From: Escherichia phage IME11
DNA: 64,000 nucleotides
Reading direction: 5' to 3' (one strand)
Sequence record: NC_019423.1
Below, piece by piece: positions 1,710-59,539 of this stretch. A program made the position numbers and the translations under genes. The notes below the pieces were generated by a model. The model was not told where the DNA came from and searched no databases. It saw only the letters and a list, made by a program, of their open reading frames with translations. The number at the start of each line of letters is the position of its first letter. Positions within the stretch are counted from its first letter, which is position 1.

Positions 1710-4352
1710 ATGGGTTTATTCAGTGGGAAGACCAAAGTATACGTAGCATCCTCTGTCTATAACATGGCAGGGGATATACATAAACGTCCAAACTATATGA
1801 AGACTGTAGTCATTGGTAATATTATTTCCAATACAGGATTCACTATGGCAGATACTATTTCTGATAGTTATCTGAATGGACCGGGTATTCGTATGCGACT
1901 GTTCTCTAGCTGGAGTAAGAACCACTATGATTCAGAAGTTGGTATGGCAGGTTCTTCATTAGGTGTACTGGCTAAGATTGACCCTACTGTTATAGAGGGT
2001 CAAATTACACCTCCTGCTGGAGAGTCTGTCTATGTTCAGGCAGCAGAGATAGGCTTTGCTGACTTTGAGCAATGGTGTGACCAGTATCTTTATGAGAATG
2101 CCCCAAGTCGAATCATGGAACGATTCGACATAGACATTGCTGAAGATACCAATGAAATTACTATGACCTCCTTAGATGGAGGCTCTACTATTACATTCAC
2201 ACCTACTAACTTTGAACCAGGTGCTTTGTATCTCTATGCTGACTACACATTCTATAAGTCACCTACTACTAATCCACCGGTAGAAGGTCCGACTACTGTC
2301 TATGATGATGAGGATGACTTACCCTCCACTTTATTATGGACTACCGTCTCCAGTGATACGACTGCTAATACAACTAACCTTACCAAGACTATACAGACTC
2401 ATTCTGTATACTCTGATGGCAGACCGGATGAAGACAGCACTGTCACAGAACCAAGTGTGGATAACTGGAACTCTTACGTTAAGGTTTATCGCAGAGGATT
2501 CACTGAGAAACCTGATGATGTGACTGTAGTTGTATCTGACAGAGTAATGACTCATACAAAGTTTGGTGAGATTCAATCCAGTACTGCTGTAACTACCAAT
2601 GTAGTTGATATAGGTGGTGGTGTTACTCGCACTGACACAATTACTACAACTACAGAGTCACTGGTTCGCAAGTATTCATCACAGACTACTCGTACTGATA
2701 CAGAAATGGCTGCTGCTGGTACACCTAAGATGCTTATCTATAAACAGAACTCTGGTAACGTTGCACTAGACTCACTGTTTGAAACTGAGGCTACTGATAA
2801 CCGGTTCTACCCATTCATCCCAATAAGGAACGATAAACAATGGGTAGAGAATGACCCAATCTACCCTCACTGCAAGAAGGCTCTTTATAAAGCTACCGGA
2901 GGAAAACTCAATAAAGTAACAGCAGAGCTTAAGAAGAATGATGACATTGGAGATATTCAATACATCTATGGCTCATTCGGTGTATCTCTTAATACACCAG
3001 AGGATACTGCTAAGGAATACATCTACCGTTTCTTTCAGATGGCTACTGAAGCATTCCCACCCGACCCAACTTATCCTACTTTGGAGGCAGTCATTGCAGG
3101 TTATCAGGCAGCTAATGATGCAGTTGATGACTATGTAGCATGGTGGAACAGGCAGGAAGGCCAGATTGTTGGAGCACCCCCACCGCTACCAGAATACCCG
3201 GTCATACCTAAGCGGGAGTTTAGGGTGCACAGTAATAAGCAGTACAAGTATGACATGACTATTGGCTGGAACTACGTATCTGAAACTACCCACTCAGGAC
3301 AAGCATGGGCTGGTGCTAAACAGGGACAACTACGAGCCAGGTATGCAGGAGATATAACTCTTACTCGCAAGAACATACGTACAGGTGATAGCAAAAAACT
3401 AGAGATTACCCCCACGTTTTACTCTATGCAGGAGTATGAATTACTTTGGCAGGATAGTAATAACTCTTACCGTAAACTTAGAGTACTGGGCCTACACCAT
3501 AATAACAGGGTGTATAAAAATAAATCAGTAAACATTGATGTTGCTGAGGCAATGAGTGACGCAGAAGAGAGTGGATTCATTATTCCACTACATACCAACA
3601 TCTACCGTTCCATGTCACTGGTTCGTAGCACTCAGTTATCTACTGCCTGTTCTTACTTAGTAATGAACTCATATAAAAAGGTTAAGAAAAAGTGGTATCA
3701 GTCTTCTGCCTTTAAGATTGTAGTTGTAGTGGTTGCTGTGGTTGTGTCTGTATTTACAGCTGGTGCTGGTGGTGTAGGTATACTTGGGGCATATGGTGCA
3801 GTTGGTGCATCACTAGGTTTTGTTGGATTAGCTGCTGTAATAGTTGGTGCTGTAGCAAATGCCATTGCTGGAATGATTCTGGTATCCCTTATCACAAAAG
3901 TATCCACTTCACTGTTTGGGGATAAACTAGGCTTTATCGTTGCTGCTATTGCTTCAATGGTAGCTACGAACGTTGGTACTGCTTTGTCTACTGGTACATC
4001 ATTATCTACCTTAGCAGGTGAAATGATGAATGCCCAAAACATCATGCAGCTTACCAGCTCAGTAGGTAATGGTATTAGTCAGTATATTAATGCATCCACG
4101 GCTGCTACTATTCAGAAAGCAGAGAGTGTAATGCAGCAGTACAATACTGATATGATGGCAATTAATAAGCAGTACGAAGAAATGTTTGGTACTGCTGGAC
4201 AGGGTGTAATTGACCCTATGCAATTCGTGTCAATGGAGTCGATGGAATCTTTCTTATCACGTACTCTTATGACTGGTTCGGATATAGCTGACTTGTCTTT
4301 AAACATGATTGGCAGCTACTCTGACATGACCCTTAATACTGACCTTGCTTAA
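1710..4352 (+). CDS. putative virion internal/structural protein with C-terminal Gly/Ala-rich hydrophobic segment
   Basis: 880-aa ORF; Thr/Ser-rich middle; long hydrophobic Gly/Ala/Val stretch (VVVVVAVVVSVFTAGAGGVGILGAYGAVGA...) near the C-terminus; three genes upstream of vRNAP. Confidence 0.6.
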   Translation: MGLFSGKTKVYVASSVYNMAGDIHKRPNYMKTVVIGNIISNTGFTMADTISDSYLNGPGIRMRLFSSWSKNHYDSEVGMAGSSLGVLAKIDPTVIEGQITPPAGESVYVQAAEIGFADFEQWCDQYLYENAPSRIMERFDIDIAEDTNEITMTSLDGGSTITFTPTNFEPGALYLYADYTFYKSPTTNPPVEGPTTVYDDEDDLPSTLLWTTVSSDTTANTTNLTKTIQTHSVYSDGRPDEDSTVTEPSVDNWNSYVKVYRRGFTEKPDDVTVVVSDRVMTHTKFGEIQSSTAVTTNVVDIGGGVTRTDTITTTTESLVRKYSSQTTRTDTEMAAAGTPKMLIYKQNSGNVALDSLFETEATDNRFYPFIPIRNDKQWVENDPIYPHCKKALYKATGGKLNKVTAELKKNDDIGDIQYIYGSFGVSLNTPEDTAKEYIYRFFQMATEAFPPDPTYPTLEAVIAGYQAANDAVDDYVAWWNRQEGQIVGAPPPLPEYPVIPKREFRVHSNKQYKYDMTIGWNYVSETTHSGQAWAGAKQGQLRARYAGDITLTRKNIRTGDSKKLEITPTFYSMQEYELLWQDSNNSYRKLRVLGLHHNNRVYKNKSVNIDVAEAMSDAEESGFIIPLHTNIYRSMSLVRSTQLSTACSYLVMNSYKKVKKKWYQSSAFKIVVVVVAVVVSVFTAGAGGVGILGAYGAVGASLGFVGLAAVIVGAVANAIAGMILVSLITKVSTSLFGDKLGFIVAAIASMVATNVGTALSTGTSLSTLAGEMMNAQNIMQLTSSVGNGISQYINASTAATIQKAESVMQQYNTDMMAINKQYEEMFGTAGQGVIDPMQFVSMESMESFLSRTLMTGSDIADLSLNMIGSYSDMTLNTDLA

Positions 4353-19069: not shown

Positions 19070-19328
19070 CGACTCTAGGGGACTTAGTACTATTTACCCA
19101 TAGCTGGGAGGCTTTTGGTTCTTACCACGAAGACAGTCCACGCTGACTAGGCTTGGGATTGATAGTCCCGTTCCTGTGGTAATTACTCAGGCTAGGATTT
19201 AAGGAGTTCCTATTCTCCAGCGAAATTCCCGTCGAGGGGAATAACAATACAATAGCAGTCACTGGACTGTCTTACCAGTGTTGTCTTTAGAGTGCTATGC
19301 AATCAGGACTATGTTACTGCTGAATGGG

Positions 19329-19402
19329 TGTCCACTACTGGATTTGAACCAGTGACTTTCCGATTATTAGTCGGTTGCTTTCCCCGTCTAAGCTAAGTGG
19401 AC
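19329..19402 (-). tRNA. tRNA; manual fold gives anticodon loop CUAAUAA (anticodon AAU, Ile-reading) - needs software confirmation
   Basis: 74-nt cloverleaf: 7-bp acceptor GTCCACT/AGTGGAC, D arm GCTT/AAGC, anticodon stem CCGA/TCGG, T arm ACTGG-TTCAAAT-CCAGT; CCA not encoded. Confidence 0.6.
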
Positions 19403-19408
19403 TTATTA

Positions 19409-19484
19409 TGGTTACCCAGGCAGGATTCGAACCTGCGTCCTAGTTGGTTTACTAGTGGGGCTTTACCACTAAGCCTACTGGGTA
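19409..19484 (-). tRNA. tRNA-like gene with encoded CCA and non-canonical anticodon loop (6 or 8 nt)
   Basis: 76 nt: perfect 7-bp acceptor TACCCAG/CTGGGTA, D arm GGCT/AGCC, T arm GCAGG-TTCGAAT-CCTGC, discriminator A plus CCA. The anticodon arm only pairs as CTAGT/ACTAG with a 6-nt loop (AAACCA) or as a 4-bp stem with an 8-nt loop. Confidence 0.55.
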
Positions 19485-53351: not shown

Positions 53352-53558
53352 TTAGATTGCTTCTTTACGAAACTCTCTACGCAATTTACGGATTTGTTTC
53401 TTGGTAGGCTTAGCAGGGAATGAATGACAAGCAACATAGTGCTGTCTCTCTGTTACGTTAGTAATCTCTGAGAACCAAAGATTCCACTGAGCATCCATCT
53501 TACCTAACAATCCACCATTGTTACTCTTGTTTGCAAACAGGGAAGTTTGAATACGCAT
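53352..53558 (-). CDS. small basic protein, paralog of 52513-52698
   Basis: 68 aa with C-terminal KPTKKQIRKLRREFRK; flanked by two hairpin promoters. Confidence 0.45.
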   Translation of the reverse strand: MRIQTSLFANKSNNGGLLGKMDAQWNLWFSEITNVTERQHYVACHSFPAKPTKKQIRKLRREFRKEAI

Positions 53559-53587
53559 AGCTTAATCTCCAATAGTTAAATGATAGC

Positions 53588-53606
53588 CAATAGATGTGGA
53601 GCATCT
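53588..53606 (-). promoter_or_regulatory. N4-type vRNAP hairpin promoter
   Basis: AGCCAAT-AGATGT-GGA-GCATCT (one T-G in stem); CC at 53587-53588 is 11 nt 5' of the loop-centre G. Confidence 0.55.
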
Positions 53607-53612
53607 TGGTTT

Positions 53613-53813
53613 TTAAGGAATGTAAGAAAACCAGGTTAGCAGTTCAGCTTTAGCTTTCTGATACTTACTGTCTACATTTTCATCTGAGATATCTATGTCT
53701 GATTCTCCATAATGATGGAGGTCAGACTGATATTGTTCTTGCTGACGAACGGCTTCTTCAAAGCGTTCTAAAGCTTCTTGTGGAGATTCAGATTTGCAAT
53801 CTGTTAGAGACAT
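53613..53813 (-). CDS. hypothetical small acidic protein
   Basis: 66-aa ORF. Confidence 0.4.
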   Translation of the reverse strand: MSLTDCKSESPQEALERFEEAVRQQEQYQSDLHHYGESDIDISDENVDSKYQKAKAELLTWFSYIP

Positions 53814-53815
53814 AC

Positions 53816-53998
53816 TTATTCCTTAGTTAGTTCAACTATAAAGTTATCTAGTTTCTGCCTAGCTATTTCACACGATTCTACTATTGATTCATAGTCATCA
53901 GGGTCTGCTGAACCAGCCCAACTATCTGCAATTGCTGATTCTGCGTAGTTACTAATTAGCTTTTTAAGCTTCTCTGCTTGCTTAGGATTAAGGGACAT
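53816..53998 (-). CDS. hypothetical small protein
   Basis: 60-aa ORF. Confidence 0.4.
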   Translation of the reverse strand: MSLNPKQAEKLKKLISNYAESAIADSWAGSADPDDYESIVESCEIARQKLDNFIVELTKE

Positions 53999-54041
53999 TT
54001 TACTTCTCCTAAAGTAGATAGTTATCTACTTTTGACTATCT

Positions 54042-54068
54042 ATCTAATGTTCAAAACAGGAGACTCCG
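54042..54068 (-). terminator. putative terminator hairpin
   Basis: GGAGACTC-cgaa-GAGTCTCC downstream of 54087-54410. Confidence 0.4.
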
Positions 54069-54086
54069 AAGAGTCTCCTAGGTGAC

Positions 54087-54410
54087 TTAGTCTTTAGTCA
54101 GGATGTCAATTACTTTAGAATATTCTGCGTTATAGATACGAGCGTTCTCTGAATCTTTGCAGAAATCTTCGATACTTTTCTTACGCAGAGTCTCGTTCCT
54201 AGCTGTTTCCTCTGCCAGTTTATTAACAAAGGTATGCATTTCTAATTTAGTACGAATGGCTTGTTTCTCTGCCATAGTACTTACATATGAATTAAGCATA
54301 CCTACTGCTTTAGTTGCTGTACCAAATGTATCTGCAACAGTAGTAGCAGCTGAGTTAACAGTACCAAGTAAAGTTCCTGCGGTCATACGTACAGTAGCGG
54401 TAGTAGTCAT
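54087..54410 (-). CDS. hypothetical early protein
   Basis: 107-aa ORF, first gene downstream of hairpin promoter 54449-54467. Confidence 0.45.
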   Translation of the reverse strand: MTTTATVRMTAGTLLGTVNSAATTVADTFGTATKAVGMLNSYVSTMAEKQAIRTKLEMHTFVNKLAEETARNETLRKKSIEDFCKDSENARIYNAEYSKVIDILTKD

Positions 54411-54448
54411 GATGATAGCTCCAATAGTTGATGATAGGACGACATGTC

Positions 54449-54467
54449 CATAACATGCGGAGCATGT
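54449..54467 (-). promoter_or_regulatory. N4-type vRNAP hairpin promoter (the one furthest to the right in this window)
   Basis: GTCCATA-ACATGC-GGA-GCATGT; CC at 54448-54449 is 11 nt 5' of the loop-centre G. Confidence 0.6.
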
Positions 54468-54643
54468 GTAACGTGTAAGGTGGGGTAGGGTAGTGGCTAC
54501 ACCGTCAACATACCGGGGGGGCTAGTTGAGTGTAAGGGTGTAGCCCCAGCCACACCACTGTAGCCATACATAGCTATCATCATTTTGGTATGCAAAAATA
54601 CCATAGCTATCCTACTTATAAGCAGTTAAATAGGAGGAAGCTT

Positions 54644-54964
54644 TCAGGTGATTATGCGTGCTATACCAGGGTAATAGTCCGGATGGTTAGGATTACCACT
54701 ACTATTCCTTACGGTAGCATCTTTGATAAATACATGGGCATAATCACCGTATGGTATGAATACTGACTCACCATTTTGCAGGATAACTATCTCTGCATTA
54801 CTGTTAGTAAGTAGCTTATGTCCCTGTGCAAAGTCTGCTAACTCTCCTGGCTCCATTATTAGTGTAGAAGTTCCATGGGTCATAATGTGGATGATTGCTT
54901 TTTCTGGTACAGAGGAATAATGCAGTAAGTCCGTACCTTTCATTCCTAATAGTTTAACGTTCAT
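54644..54964 (-). CDS. small protein of tandem paralog family (member F)
   Basis: 106 aa; core EPGELADFAQGHKLLTNSNAEIVILQNGESVFIP shared with 55265-55615 and others. Confidence 0.5.
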   Translation of the reverse strand: MNVKLLGMKGTDLLHYSSVPEKAIIHIMTHGTSTLIMEPGELADFAQGHKLLTNSNAEIVILQNGESVFIPYGDYAHVFIKDATVRNSSGNPNHPDYYPGIARIIT

Positions 54965-55268
54965 GCTTCAGTACCTGTTTAAGAAGACTATCCATGTAAT
55001 AGCAGTATGCCTCGGAGTTATCATCGTTGATTGGTAATCCAATGAACCCGAAGGTGTATATACAGAAGTGATTAAGTTCATGAACCAAGGTGATAGGGTC
55101 ACTATCTTGTGCATAGATAAGTACCGAACCATCAGATAGCAGTGTAGTTACACCTTTGCTTTGTTCCTCTGGTTCACAGCCCTTAGCTTTCTTGTACTTC
55201 TTAATGAAGGTATCCCAGTCGAATACTACCTCTAACTGTACCGGATAGGGGGATGTGTTTAGTTTCAT
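54954..55268 (-). CDS. small HExxH-motif protein (putative mini metallopeptidase-like)
   Basis: 104 aa; LVHELNHFCIY contains HExxH; embedded in the paralog array. Confidence 0.45.
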   Translation of the reverse strand: MKLNTSPYPVQLEVVFDWDTFIKKYKKAKGCEPEEQSKGVTTLLSDGSVLIYAQDSDPITLVHELNHFCIYTFGFIGLPINDDNSEAYCYYMDSLLKQVLKHER

Positions 55269-55615
55269 AGAGATACCTTTGGATAAATGGTGCGTACTCT
55301 TTTAAAATCTTTATTAGGTCTACCATCTATAGTAAGCCCAACAAACCCTTCTTCTATCCTTGGTTCAAAGAACAAGAATGCAGATTCACCAGCAGGTATC
55401 TTTATGGATTCCCCTGGATTAAGGATGGTTAAATTAGCAGGGCTGTTGAGTAGAAGGATGGAACCACGAGTACTATCTGCTAACTCACCGGGTAACATAA
55501 GCATATGACAGTCTTGCGGGAGTAACCAATCAATAGCTTTAGTGACATTCTCAGAGTAAACGGATACCTCATCTGTATACTGGTGAAGGAATAATACTCT
55601 ATTCATAAGGTACAC
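55265..55615 (-). CDS. small protein of tandem paralog family (member E)
   Basis: 116 aa; core LPGELADSTRGSILLLNSPANLTILNPGESIKIP. Confidence 0.5.
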   Translation of the reverse strand: MYLMNRVLFLHQYTDEVSVYSENVTKAIDWLLPQDCHMLMLPGELADSTRGSILLLNSPANLTILNPGESIKIPAGESAFLFFEPRIEEGFVGLTIDGRPNKDFKRVRTIYPKVSL

Positions 55616-56620: not shown

Positions 56621-56657
56621 GAAAAAGAAATGGGGTAGAGCCTCTCGACTCTACCCC
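56621..56657 (-). terminator. putative rho-independent terminator
   Basis: 9-bp stem GGGGTAGAG/CTCTACCCC with 8-nt loop, preceded on plus by GAAAAAGAAA (T-run on minus). Confidence 0.45.
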
Positions 56658-56805
56658 TTACCGTTTTCTATCACGGGTCAGTTCATCACCCTAGATACAT
56701 GTGTATCGTTAGCCTACTAGGTAGGAAAGGAGCCGGGTAACCCTGACTGTAGAAGTTATTAACTCTTTACGAGTACCGCCACTGTCTACTAGGCGGTATG
56801 ACTAA

Positions 56806-57267: not shown

Positions 57268-57957
57268 ATGAGTGAGTTAACCAGACAGCAAATTATTAAT
57301 GCACTACCTGCTAACTTCAAAAATAGTGTAAGCCAGGAATTGGTAGACACGATTAACAACATTACCCAAGACCAGCTGGTTGCTGAGGCATTCCGTGAAA
57401 ACTTCATCTCTTACTCTGGTGTAATGAAGGAGGGTAAGTTCAAGACACAGGACTACATGAATGCAGTTCAGTATGTGACTTACAAACATATGGGCTATTC
57501 CAATAAGGAAGCCTACTTCAAAACATTCCCTAACCGACAAGCAGAACTTGTAGCACGGGGAACCAGTGAGAAAGATATTAGTGCTTATGTATCTGCTTAC
57601 CACAGGGGTAAGCTAGTTAACCTCATCATGGAACAAAGTTTGGTTCCAGTGTGGATTGTGAACCAAGACAATTATCAGAAGGCAATCAATGTTCAGGTTG
57701 AACTGATGACTACAGCAGCAAGTGAGAAGGTAAGATGTGATGCAGCTAACTCTATCCTTACCCACTTAGCTAAACCAAAAGACCAGGTAACTAACATCAA
57801 TCTGGACTTGAGAGAGAACTCCGGGTTGACCGACCTCAAAGCAACACTTGCTGCATTAGCTGAACAGCAAATCAATGCAATCAATAGTGGTGTACCTACT
57901 AAAGAGATTGCTGGTTCTAAACTAGTACGTGCAGATGAGGACATTACAGATGTCTGA
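57268..57957 (+). CDS. putative terminase small subunit (by position)
   Basis: 229-aa ORF immediately upstream of and overlapping the terminase large subunit; assignment is by synteny. Confidence 0.4.
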   Translation: MSELTRQQIINALPANFKNSVSQELVDTINNITQDQLVAEAFRENFISYSGVMKEGKFKTQDYMNAVQYVTYKHMGYSNKEAYFKTFPNRQAELVARGTSEKDISAYVSAYHRGKLVNLIMEQSLVPVWIVNQDNYQKAINVQVELMTTAASEKVRCDAANSILTHLAKPKDQVTNINLDLRENSGLTDLKATLAALAEQQINAINSGVPTKEIAGSKLVRADEDITDV

Positions 57958-59539
57958 GTTAATTAAACAGGAACTGGATGAATGGCTAGACCAGGTGGAT
58001 TATTCCCACCTTAACTCTTCTAACTATGTTCCCAGTCAGTTTGCTCTTACCTTTGCCAACTTTATTAAGTTGGTTAATGGTAAGGAAGGTGAATCCAACA
58101 AAACACCACCAGTTCACTTGAAGATGTTGGATAAGATGATTAGCCCGAACCAGTATGTAGTTAACCTGTGCTTCCGTGGTGCAGGTAAGACTGCTGTGTT
58201 CATGGAATACTTTACATTGTTCTTGGCAGTGTTTGGACACTTACCAAGTCTGGGAAAAGTAGAAGGAATGATTTACGTATCCGACTCAATGGATAACGGT
58301 GCTAAGTCTGCACGTAAGAATATTGAGTTCCGGTATAAGAATAGTGAGTTCCTTCAGCAGTGGATACCTGAAGCTACCTTTACGGATAACCTGTTAGAGT
58401 TCCGTAATGCAGAAGGGCATCGACTGGGTGTTAAGTTGTTTGGTGCTAAGACAGGTCTTCGTGGTACGAAGATATATGGTAAACGTCCAACACTCTGTGT
58501 ACTGGATGACTTGATTAGTGATGGTGATGCTAACTCTAAGACTAGCATGGAAGCTATTAAAGATACCGTCTATAAAGGTGTGAACCATGCTCTTGACCCA
58601 ACCCGTCGTAAAGTAATCTTCAACGGTACTCCCTTTAATAAGGAAGACATTATCATTGAGGCTGTTGAGTCTGGTGCATGGGATGTAAACGTATGGCCTG
58701 TATGTGAGAAGTTCCCTTGCAGTGAAGAAGAATTTCAGGGTGCATGGGATGACCGTTTCTCTTACGACTACATCAAAGCCCAATACGATATGGCAGTTAA
58801 GACCGGTAAGCTGGCAGGCTTCTATCAGGAACTTATGCTCCGTATCAGTTCTGAGGATGAGAGACTGGTTCAGGATAGTGAAATTAAATGGTACAGCAGG
58901 CAGCAGCTATTAAGGATGAAATCCTGCTACAACTATTACATTACAACTGACTTTGCTACTTCGGAGAAACAGACCAGTGACTACAGTGTCATATCAGTTT
59001 GGGCTTATAGTTCTAATGGAGATTGGTTCTGGGTTGATGGTGTGGCTAATCGCCAGCTTATGGATAAAAACTTTGATGACCTGTTCCGTCTGGTTCAGGA
59101 ATACCAACCACAAAACGTTGGTGTCGAAATTACAGGACAACAGAATGGATTCATCTCACTCCTTCAGAAAGAAATGATTAACCGTAACGTCTTCTTTAAC
59201 TTTGCTACCTCTGAGGGTGGTAAGCCAGGCATCCGTCCTGTAACCTCTAAGCTGTCACGCTTTAACCTGGTAGTTCCATGGTTCAAGGCTGGTAAGATGT
59301 ATTTCCCGGAAGAGTTGAGAGATACAACTATTATGGGGCTGTTCATGGGCCAGATTAAACTAGCTACCATTAATGGAATCAAAGGTAAGGATGACTGTAT
59401 TGATACTATTTCCATGCTGGGTTATCTCAATCCTTGGAAACCACAAGCAGGTATGACTATGGTGGATAGTAAGGGTGACCCAATGTGGGATGAGGAAGAA
59501 GAAGATAGTGTTAACCCACTACGTTCATATATTGTATGA
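57950..59539 (+). CDS. terminase large subunit
   Basis: ATG at 57950 with GAGGA RBS (track start 57929 is GTG); Walker A CFRGAGKT, Walker B LCVLDD, C-terminal nuclease-like acidic motifs (ITTDFATS, DDCIDT). Confidence 0.8.
   Translation: MSELIKQELDEWLDQVDYSHLNSSNYVPSQFALTFANFIKLVNGKEGESNKTPPVHLKMLDKMISPNQYVVNLCFRGAGKTAVFMEYFTLFLAVFGHLPSLGKVEGMIYVSDSMDNGAKSARKNIEFRYKNSEFLQQWIPEATFTDNLLEFRNAEGHRLGVKLFGAKTGLRGTKIYGKRPTLCVLDDLISDGDANSKTSMEAIKDTVYKGVNHALDPTRRKVIFNGTPFNKEDIIIEAVESGAWDVNVWPVCEKFPCSEEEFQGAWDDRFSYDYIKAQYDMAVKTGKLAGFYQELMLRISSEDERLVQDSEIKWYSRQQLLRMKSCYNYYITTDFATSEKQTSDYSVISVWAYSSNGDWFWVDGVANRQLMDKNFDDLFRLVQEYQPQNVGVEITGQQNGFISLLQKEMINRNVFFNFATSEGGKPGIRPVTSKLSRFNLVVPWFKAGKMYFPEELRDTTIMGLFMGQIKLATINGIKGKDDCIDTISMLGYLNPWKPQAGMTMVDSKGDPMWDEEEEDSVNPLRSYIV

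Follow-up and report, generated by a model that had tools for sequence, protein, structure and literature searches.

A repeat-rich intergenic element of Escherichia phage IME11 probably comprises the left chromosome end and a conserved terminase recognition region at the concatemer junction

We asked what function is served by the GC-rich intergenic element at 54480-54612 in a 64,000-nt stretch of DNA from Escherichia phage IME11 (sequence record NC_019423.1), a stretch that we refer to as the window. The element lies between an array of paralogous genes and the first hairpin promoter of the virion RNA polymerase (vRNAP) regulon, and the original prediction, made from the sequence alone, was that it is a boundary element, a terminator, or a protein-binding site. 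We find that the element probably consists of the left chromosome end together with conserved cis-acting DNA, most likely the region in which terminase recognizes and cleaves the concatemer junction. The left end and terminal-repeat boundary of N4-like phages were already known. To this we add a motif cassette, its fixed geometry, a reading of the inverted repeat as a by-product, and a C-run that recurs at left ends across families.

A BLAST comparison with a phage collection identified the window as a Gamaleyavirus (G7C-like and N4-like, within the Schitoviridae), with best matches that are 90 to 95% identical. Judged from these alignments, the window is a circularly permuted genome, reverse-complemented relative to N4, in which the terminal repeat is present once. 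The commonest read starts reported for IME11 are AATCTTTGCAGAAATCTTCG and GTGGCTGGGGCTACACCC..., 401 bp apart (PMC3896407 Table 3). The forward peak, AATCTTTGCAGAAATCTTCG, is an exact match to 54152-54171, and the GTGGCTGGGGCTACACCC... peak aligns to the minus strand at 54534-54553, with the distal end differing at 2 positions. Because the IME11 peaks map to these positions, we assign the minus-strand 5' end to 54553 and the repeat to 54152-54553. Minor read-start peaks lie 1 nt to either side of the left-end peak (PMC3896407), and from this peak and the starts of related records we place the left physical end at 54552-54554, with its main position at 54553, on the minus strand (the 5' end of the top strand in N4 orientation). 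The direct terminal repeat of approximately 402 bp (54152-54553, minus strand) is delimited by the IME11 peaks, the repeat annotated in Mimir124, and the ends of related records.

Records deposited for relatives break at the same places. Those of St11Ph5, ShWW44, PD38, PhAPEC7, G7C, PBM-2, Jgk1, N4, 3HA13, VEc25, OLB145, and KP8 start within a few nt of the homologue of 54553. In the BLAST alignments, the records of PD38, PhAPEC7, St11Ph5, ShWW44, and SP5M start at approximately 54545-54552, those of Bp4, UE-S5a, and UE-M3 end at approximately 54552-54553, and those of Mimir124 and 24-32N end at 54152. Mimir124 is annotated with a 403-bp direct terminal repeat (DTR), labeled "DTR (short)", that corresponds to approximately 54152-54554, and repeat lengths are similar across phages (401 bp in IME11 [PMC3896407], 403 bp in Mimir124, and 404 bp in KP8). 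When nt 1-156 of N4 were used as the query, the record starts of Enquatrovirus, Gamaleyavirus, and Kaypoctavirus fell within a few nt of one another. By homology, then, the virion chromosome has its left end at 54553, which also bounds the direct terminal repeat, and this position coincides with the mapped end in close relatives. Like the terminal repeats of N4-like genomes, this one is approximately 400 bp long; it includes the first vRNAP promoter and the beginning of gp1, within which the right end falls.

This placement changes how the surroundings of the element are to be read. The "paralog array" is the gp70-72-like block of the right genome end, and the vRNAP regulon starts at the left end; the two adjoin only in concatemers or in a circularized assembly. 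In the packaged DNA they occupy opposite ends. The terms "boundary element" and "protein-binding site" of the original prediction hold insofar as the locus is a physical end and a probable protein site, although for a reason that could not be seen from the sequence alone. In the virion, the terminal repeat 54152-54553 would sit at both ends of the DNA.

Around the end, we aligned 12 to 13 junctions from three genera (Gamaleya-, KP8-, and N4-type). The invariant block nearest the end is GGGGCTACA(C)CC..TTACAC, and it is followed by a C-run (6 to 13 C) that leads into GGTA (TGT in N4). Further in, the invariant blocks are CCTACCCCACCT(TG)TACAC..TACAC, then the first vRNAP hairpin promoter, P1, and TTATGGACATGTYGTCC. 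The most widely conserved feature is the TA-polyC-GGTA motif (TAGCCCCCCCGGTAT) at 54510-54523 on the minus strand, with its C-run at 54515-54521, nt 33-39 from the end. The CCCTACCCCACC box lies at 54479-54490, also on the minus strand and nt 64-75 from the end; it occurs only once in the window and is unchanged in 12 junctions from the three genera. Conservation also extends across the cut. The DNA at 54554-54600 (minus strand), which is unique right-end DNA at the concatemer junction, includes GATAGCTATGTATGGCTACAGTGGT adjoining the cut and a symmetric tract of TTTTG (54583-54587) and CAAAA (54593-54597). These approximately 45 nt beyond the cut are kept in junctions of all three types, even where the upstream gene differs. 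The N4 record, which begins TGGTGGGGCTACACCCC..C9..GTGTAGCC..CCTACCCCACC (in full, TGGTGGGGCTACACCCCTTACACCATAAGCA-C9-TGTCTTTACTAGTGTAGCCTTAGCCTACCCCACCTTGTACACGTTACAC, then the P1 hairpin and gp1), carries the same cassette as the window, and the G7C, St11Ph5, and KP8 records begin likewise. The variation in C-run length among close relatives (6 to 13, with 13 in L114/L128) may reflect either real slippage or homopolymer sequencing error.

Every repeat that the original prediction had listed is present where it was placed. The relevant reading direction is the reverse complement, because the genes to either side, one upstream at 54644-54964 and one downstream at 54087-54410, lie on the minus strand. 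The inverted repeat GGCTACACC/GGTGTAGCC (54495-54503 and 54537-54545) lies at nt 9-59 inside the left end, around the C/G run. Between its arms is the G7 run at 54515-54521 on the plus strand, which is the C-run on the minus strand. The ATAGCTAT pair (54570-54577 and 54603-54610) is an inverted as well as a direct repeat because each copy is palindromic, and the hairpin GGTAT-gcaaaa-ATACC is at 54587-54602. A further repeat runs through the element: TACAC/GTGTA is present in 5 copies in 54441-54560, which is the densest 100-nt bin of the 64-kb window (background, 0.22 per 100 nt; 3 copies in the runner-up bin). On the minus strand, the copies span 54466-54542, with plus-strand GTGTA at 54466, 54473, 54530, and 54538 (direct on the top strand) and plus-strand TACAC at 54498 (inverted). 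The repeat unit is (C)TACAC(C), and the two arms of the inverted repeat are the first direct TACAC copy and the sole inverted copy. Clearly, the non-random features of this DNA are the density of TACAC and the boxes around the C-run that are conserved across genera.

The cassette extends to more distant Schitoviridae. In the Pseudomonas phages LUZ7 and LIT1 (Migulavirinae), whose ends were defined by run-off sequencing, C7-GGT lies at nt 29-38, and LIT1 also has CTACCTACCCCACCTTG at nt 67-83, with a box of the CCCTACCCCACC type at nt 70. In the window, N4, G7C, KP8, LIT1, and LUZ7, the distance from the left end as defined by the record to the start of the C-run is 29 to 35 nt. We scanned IMG/VR for CCCCCCGGT-N15-45-CTACCCCACC and obtained 33 loci, mostly on N4-like contigs of approximately 70 to 76 kb or on short fragments of them; a few loci look like chance matches. 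These loci include a dozen lineages that are otherwise dissimilar in the region, and a looser scan gave more. In 140 unique cassettes we counted 29 occurrences of [AG][GT]A[CT]T (for example, GTACT), a motif that the search pattern did not contain, ending 28 to 31 nt upstream of the C-run, and this position is exactly the mapped end of LIT1. Among 40 cassettes from relatives, which were crudely de-duplicated so that a few rows are near-duplicates, 20 contain at least three YACAC copies in approximately 100 nt, nearly all of them direct, compared with approximately 0.27 in control windows. Two IMG/VR sequences, 3300007085_000012 and 3300007106_000008 (L110/L147/L151), carry an exact Escherichia coli Chi site, GCTGGTGG, at the predicted left end (GGTGCTGGTGGGGCTACACC). 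We considered a role for Chi and set it aside as probably a coincidence, since other lineages have 1 to 2 mismatches and the orientation is wrong for RecBCD entry at the end.

Several of these observations point to terminase. The region coincides with the mapped cut, the C-run keeps a fixed distance from that cut, and the box occurs once in the window. There is also an analogy to T7, in which the small terminase subunit (gp18) recognizes PacB and the large subunit (gp19) cleaves PacC in the concatemer (PMC9860248). For these reasons, we consider a terminase site the most probable function. Sequence is conserved on both sides of the cut, including DNA that lies at the far right end of the virion chromosome, as would suit a site read in the concatemer. 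The genome also encodes a terminase large subunit nearby (57929-59539, plus strand; phrog_38, E = 9e-101; Pfam Terminase_6C). Adjacent to it, on the upstream side, is an open reading frame (ORF) similar to N4 gp69 (57268-57957; phrog_2109, a family with no assigned function), which by its position may encode the small terminase subunit.

A concatemer processed in this way would have the right-end gp70-72-like array running straight into a single copy of the terminal repeat (54553 down to 54152). Terminase would recognize this junction and cut precisely at 54553 to create the unique left end, and it would also cut approximately 400 bp further in, inside gp1, to create the right end of the neighboring genome. 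The determinants outside the repeat would be the cut-proximal block GATAGCTATGTAYGGCTRYAGTG and the T4/A4 symmetric tract, and those inside it would be the YACAC repeats, TA-polyC-GGT approximately three helical turns from the cut, and CCCTACCCCACC at approximately nt 65-75. Recognition would depend on these sequence motifs rather than on a hairpin, and the reader would be the large subunit with a small subunit, possibly the gp69-like protein. We infer that binding at the polyC and the box places the left cut. The right cut, the context of which does not resemble that of the left cut, would perhaps be placed by distance from the bound site.

Several points weigh against this reading. The end positions in the window are assigned by homology at 90 to 95% identity. 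The cassette is not uniform: the CTACCCC box is missing from LUZ7, and in N4 the C-run is not followed by GGT. A comparison of the left-cut and right-cut contexts revealed no shared motif; the right cut, TTCTGCAAAGATT^CAGAG, is unlike the left context, and one rule for both cuts is not evident. The accessible literature that we searched defines no packaging signal for N4-like phages and yielded no binding, cleavage, or packaging data for their junctions. Finally, the motifs inside the repeat lie equally at the leading end of the DNA upon injection, so they could act after ejection instead.

In such a post-ejection role, which we regard as unlikely, the first approximately 75 bp (polyC-GGT, CCCTACCCCACC, and YACAC) would be bound by an ejected virion protein, such as the N-terminal domain of the vRNAP, or by a host protein. 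Binding would anchor or protect the first-entering end, and it would close a topological domain in which gyrase supercoils the DNA and extrudes P1 only approximately 90 nt from the free end. The two most deeply conserved motifs are indeed inside the repeat, in the first-entering DNA, and in several lineages the CTACCCC box is 3 to 25 nt upstream of the first hairpin promoter. Moreover, the first approximately 500 bp come in together with the vRNAP, and gyrase supercoils this DNA so that the promoter hairpins are extruded (PMC4496689); the vRNAP itself is tethered to the membrane close to where injection occurs (PMC13492108). However, the approximately 45 nt conserved outside the repeat belong to the other end of the virion chromosome, and T3/T7-like phages have the C-run (T3 also the box) without a vRNAP or hairpin promoters. 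The motifs are also missing from a second vRNAP-type hairpin promoter in the 53346 region on the minus strand (GACGC-TCC-GCGTC followed by TTATGG): there are no TACAC units upstream of it, from which we conclude that the units belong to the end and not to promoters, and polyC-GGT and CCCTACCCCACC are likewise lacking there. A leading-end role and the packaging role that we favor are compatible, and the same DNA may serve both.

If terminase reads sequence motifs, the inverted repeat that first drew attention to this locus needs another account. Nine-bp inverted repeats with arms no more than 60 nt apart are common, with 67 pairs in the 64-kb window. The one at 54495-54545 widens to 20-nt arms that are 75% complementary (54484-54503 and 54537-54556), which makes it the third longest in the window. 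Conservation of the repeat in relatives, which the original prediction proposed as a check, was largely not found. On 12 junctions from the three genera, the helix GGCTACACC/GGTGTAGCC (9 bp) was paired in 57% of cells, with 0 compensatory pairs. Across 17 lineages, an inverted repeat flanking the C-run was better than in shuffled sequences (p <= 0.05) in four only, namely the window (p = 0.0025), N4, G7C, and LUZ7, and approximately 11 of the 17 had p > 0.1. This shuffle test rules out a family-wide stem around the C-run, a hypothesis that LUZ7, LIT1, and KP8 had suggested. The 9-bp repeat is common only to N4, where it reads GGCTACAC/GTGTAGCC, and some Gamaleyaviruses; in G7C it is shortened to TACACCC/GGGTGTA. 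Its second arm falls in the most variable stretch of approximately 15 nt, which reads GTGTAGCC in the window and N4 (offset by 2 columns), GGGTGTA in G7C and L109, and the decayed forms ATGTAACC or ATGTATGACC in KP8-like phages. As a family signature the repeat also failed, in that an IMG/VR scan with GGCTACAC N25-50 GTGTAGCC returned 96 matches, mostly on unrelated contigs, of which only a handful were N4-like (N4, ECBP1, pSb-1, and a 72.6-kb contig). We propose that the inverted repeat is a lineage-specific by-product of one TACAC repeat copy lying inverted.

A role in replication would give the repeat more weight. In this case, it would let the 3'-ended strand fold back to prime synthesis or would take part in hairpin-telomere processing, or the cassette as a whole would be an origin. 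The extended inverted repeat does reach over the end, the ends of N4 are reported to have 3' single-stranded extensions (PMC3896407), and C-run-flanking inverted repeats also occur in LUZ7 (AATCTGG/CCAGATT) and LIT1 (TCCAAA/TTTGGA). Nevertheless, we judge this role to be very unlikely, given that the repeat is decayed or absent in KP8-like phages and many other lineages and that it shows no compensatory changes. DNA folding of the terminal 80 nt of ten lineages gave z-scores from +0.07 to -3.2 and no common structure. A hairpin-priming telomere of the parvovirus or poxvirus kind was rejected, since the arms start 9 nt short of the terminus and relatives do not keep the structure.

Other helices and folds of the element gave a similar picture. 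As single-stranded DNA, the 81-nt core is unexceptional (z = -1.2 for the minus strand and -1.6 for the plus strand). The full 133 nt fold better as minus-strand RNA than all 200 shuffles (z = -3.09), whereas the plus-strand RNA is not beyond its shuffles (z = -0.98); folding, also proposed as a check, therefore came out in favor of structure for one of these molecules only. An inner helix, TCAAC/GTTGA, was paired in 70% of cells with 3 two-sided changes, but it is not convincing because KP8-type rows form only 3 pairs. Outside the repeat, the helix ATAGCTAT/ATAGCTAT was 65% paired with 2 two-sided changes, and only the cut-proximal ATAGCTAT copy (54570-54577) is conserved. The helix TTTTS...SAAAA, also outside the repeat, was 93% paired with 1 two-sided change, a GC-to-CG swap. 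The GGTAT/ATACC hairpin was absent from every other junction examined; ECBP1 carries CATAT/ATATG, and neither form is present in most of the rest. A scan of 53500-55500 against Rfam (E <= 10) returned chance-level matches only (eukaryotic snoRNAs and similar). We thus reject a conserved RNA or DNA hairpin, because the helix is not maintained and shows no compensatory changes, the shuffle test was significant in 4 of 17 lineages, the z-scores are heterogeneous, and Rfam has no match. A G-quadruplex on the G-rich strand is speculation: the tracts GGGG-TA-GGG, G7, and GGG are conserved, but the loops between them would be 14 to 27 nt.

These results also bear on termination. A terminator or insulating structure would stop read-through from the right-end array into the vRNAP regulon, and the fold of the minus-strand RNA would suit one. 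The array does run into the DNA of the element in concatemers, and some relatives (L104, L112-L114, and L118) carry an AGGAGGT...ACCTCCT hairpin with a T-run upstream of the conserved T-tract. However, we found no intrinsic terminator (stem and T-run) on either strand in 53900-55100, and the arms of the inverted repeat, which are 33 nt apart, are followed by ACTACCC rather than a U-run. With no Rfam match, a helix that is not maintained, and two gene blocks that are not contiguous in the virion, we consider a terminator extremely improbable, and this part of the original prediction is not upheld. Nor is the element a vRNAP hairpin promoter. In such promoters of N4, a stem of 5 to 7 bp closes a 3-nt loop that has a purine at its center on the template strand, and TTATGG comes next, whereas the element has 9-bp arms separated by a 33-nt spacer and no such downstream sequence.

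Comparison with known systems places the predicted terminase region among other phage ends. For N4, a repeat of approximately 390 to 440 bp and a unique left end are reported (Ohmori, Haynes & Rothman-Denes 1988, as cited in PMC3896407, PMC3670811, and PMC3715699). The N4 DNA is homologous to that of the window: its record starts TGGTGGGGCTACACCCCTTACAC..C9..GTGTAGCC..CCTACCCCACC, then come the P1 hairpin and gp1 at nt 154, and the right end is in gp1. It differs in having C9 then TGT instead of C7-GGT, in a second inverted-repeat arm of 8 bp that is offset by 2 nt in the alignment, and, according to PMC3896407, in having six right ends compared to two closely spaced ends in IME11. The mapped Gamaleyaviruses (IME11 in PMC3896407, Mimir124 by its annotated repeat, and G7C, described as "contains terminal repeat") have the same two ends and a repeat of 401 to 403 bp. 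For these phages the accessible sources report end positions only, with no mention of the motifs or the inverted repeat, and G7C annotates a 1160-bp region that contains the repeat. T7 and T3 are likewise podophages with short exact terminal repeats and a unique left end made by concatemer cutting (PMC9860248). Their group differs in that its repeats are 160 to 230 bp (414 bp in phiKMV), its C-run leads into (A/G)TAGG, and the left-end sequences compared show no other similarity. The cos site of lambda (cosQ-cosN-cosB) resembles the element in having conserved DNA on both sides of the terminase cut and adjoining A/T tracts, but the two have no sequence relationship.

The genes and promoters next to the end fit the placement of the cuts. 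P1 lies at 54454-54466 on the minus strand, with the plus-strand template CATGC-GGA-GCATG followed by TTATGGACATG on the coding strand. It aligns with GTTGC-TTC-GCAAC of N4 and with the annotated "early promoter" of KP8 (89-110), and its stem varies between lineages by compensatory changes (GTTGC/GCAAC versus CATGC/GCATG). The gp1 homologue, which is the first early gene (phrog_5020), is at 54087-54410 on the minus strand, with its ATG at 54410; gp1 starts at nt 141-154 in the G7C, St11Ph5, N4, and KP8 records (nt 154 in N4). The right-end cut at 54152 falls at approximately codon 86 of gp1, and the right-hand repeat copy would hold a truncated gp1. In the window, Mimir124, and KP8, this cut occupies homologous positions directly behind TTCTGCAAAGAT(T), and N4 has TTCTGCAAAGAT at approximately nt 399-410, inside its reported repeat range of 390 to 440 bp. 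Between the window, KP8, and N4, the sequence TTCTGCAAAGAT just before the right cut is conserved as nucleotide sequence.

We made further observations in and around these regions. Small coding sequences (CDSs) are annotated in or near the noncoding terminal region of related records, namely Bas96_0088 (3487-3585), Mimir124 XLZ23735 (204-314), and OY979416 36139-36381, one of them as "DNA primase"; the Bas96_0088 CDS crosses the genome end, and these CDSs look like mis-annotations. The right end of KP8 (71922-73679) has two tandem diverged copies of a "T-run...ATAGCTATGTA" junction module upstream of the right-hand repeat. In IMG/VR 3300006879_000003, the spacing from the CCTACCCCACC box to gp1 is approximately 150 bp longer than in other lineages, and the terminal repeat contains extra hairpin-forming DNA (for example, GGCTTGCAAGCAAGCC and GACGAACTTCGTTCGTC) on both sides of the P1 hairpin. 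Between right-end genes of the window, at 56621-56668, there is an inverted repeat with 20-nt arms that are 80% complementary (GAAAAAGAAATGGGGTAGAG / CTCTACCCCTTACCGTTTTC), which may be a terminator or a regulatory site. ARAGORN detected no tRNA cloverleaf at the element; the sole tRNAs in the window are at 19327-19484 on the minus strand, where ARAGORN predicts a tRNA-Ile(aat) beside an odd tRNA of undetermined type with a two-base "ac" anticodon.

The position of the C-run is not confined to the Schitoviridae. Six Autographiviridae have a C-run close to the left end, with its first C at nt 26-29 and (A/G)TAGG after it: the run spans nt 26-30 in T7, 26-33 in T3, 26-31 in phiYeO3-12, 27-31 in gh-1, 26-30 in phiKMV, and 29-32 (C4) in SP6, compared with a start at nt 29-35 in N4-like phages. 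CTACCCC starts at nt 66 in T3 and phiYeO3-12, which matches nt 65-70 in N4-likes, and it is absent from T7, gh-1, phiKMV, and SP6. In T7 and T3, the C-run is probably part of PacB. No phage paper giving the motif strings was found in the literature that we searched, which did not reach older subscription papers on the ends of N4, T7, and T3. One interpretation, tentative and in our view doubtful, is that TA-polyC at approximately nt 26-35, together with CTACCCC at approximately nt 66-70 in N4-likes and T3-likes, is an ancient left-end signal common to Schitoviridae and Autographiviridae. Its readers could be terminases, which would place the left-end cut, or else the machinery of the virion or of ejection, which would hold and deliver the DNA end that is packaged last and ejected first. 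If the latter were true, the N4-like anchor would also explain gyrase supercoiling next to a free end, with extrusion of the P1 hairpin.

For annotation, these results mean that the "intergenic element" is a genome end and that the window should be read as a permuted genome, with 54152-54553 probably doubled in the virion; small ORFs called over the homologue of 54553 in related records are probably spurious. The pattern of conservation provides targets for mutagenesis, namely the cut-proximal block, polyC-GGT at its fixed distance, and the CCCTACCCCACC box, and it suggests that the inverted repeat is not required. The motif cassette could also serve as a sequence rule by which to predict the left ends of metagenomic Schitoviridae. 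Finally, the C-run position shared by T7-like and N4-like ends gives a small, testable lead on how ends may be defined in podophages with terminal repeats.

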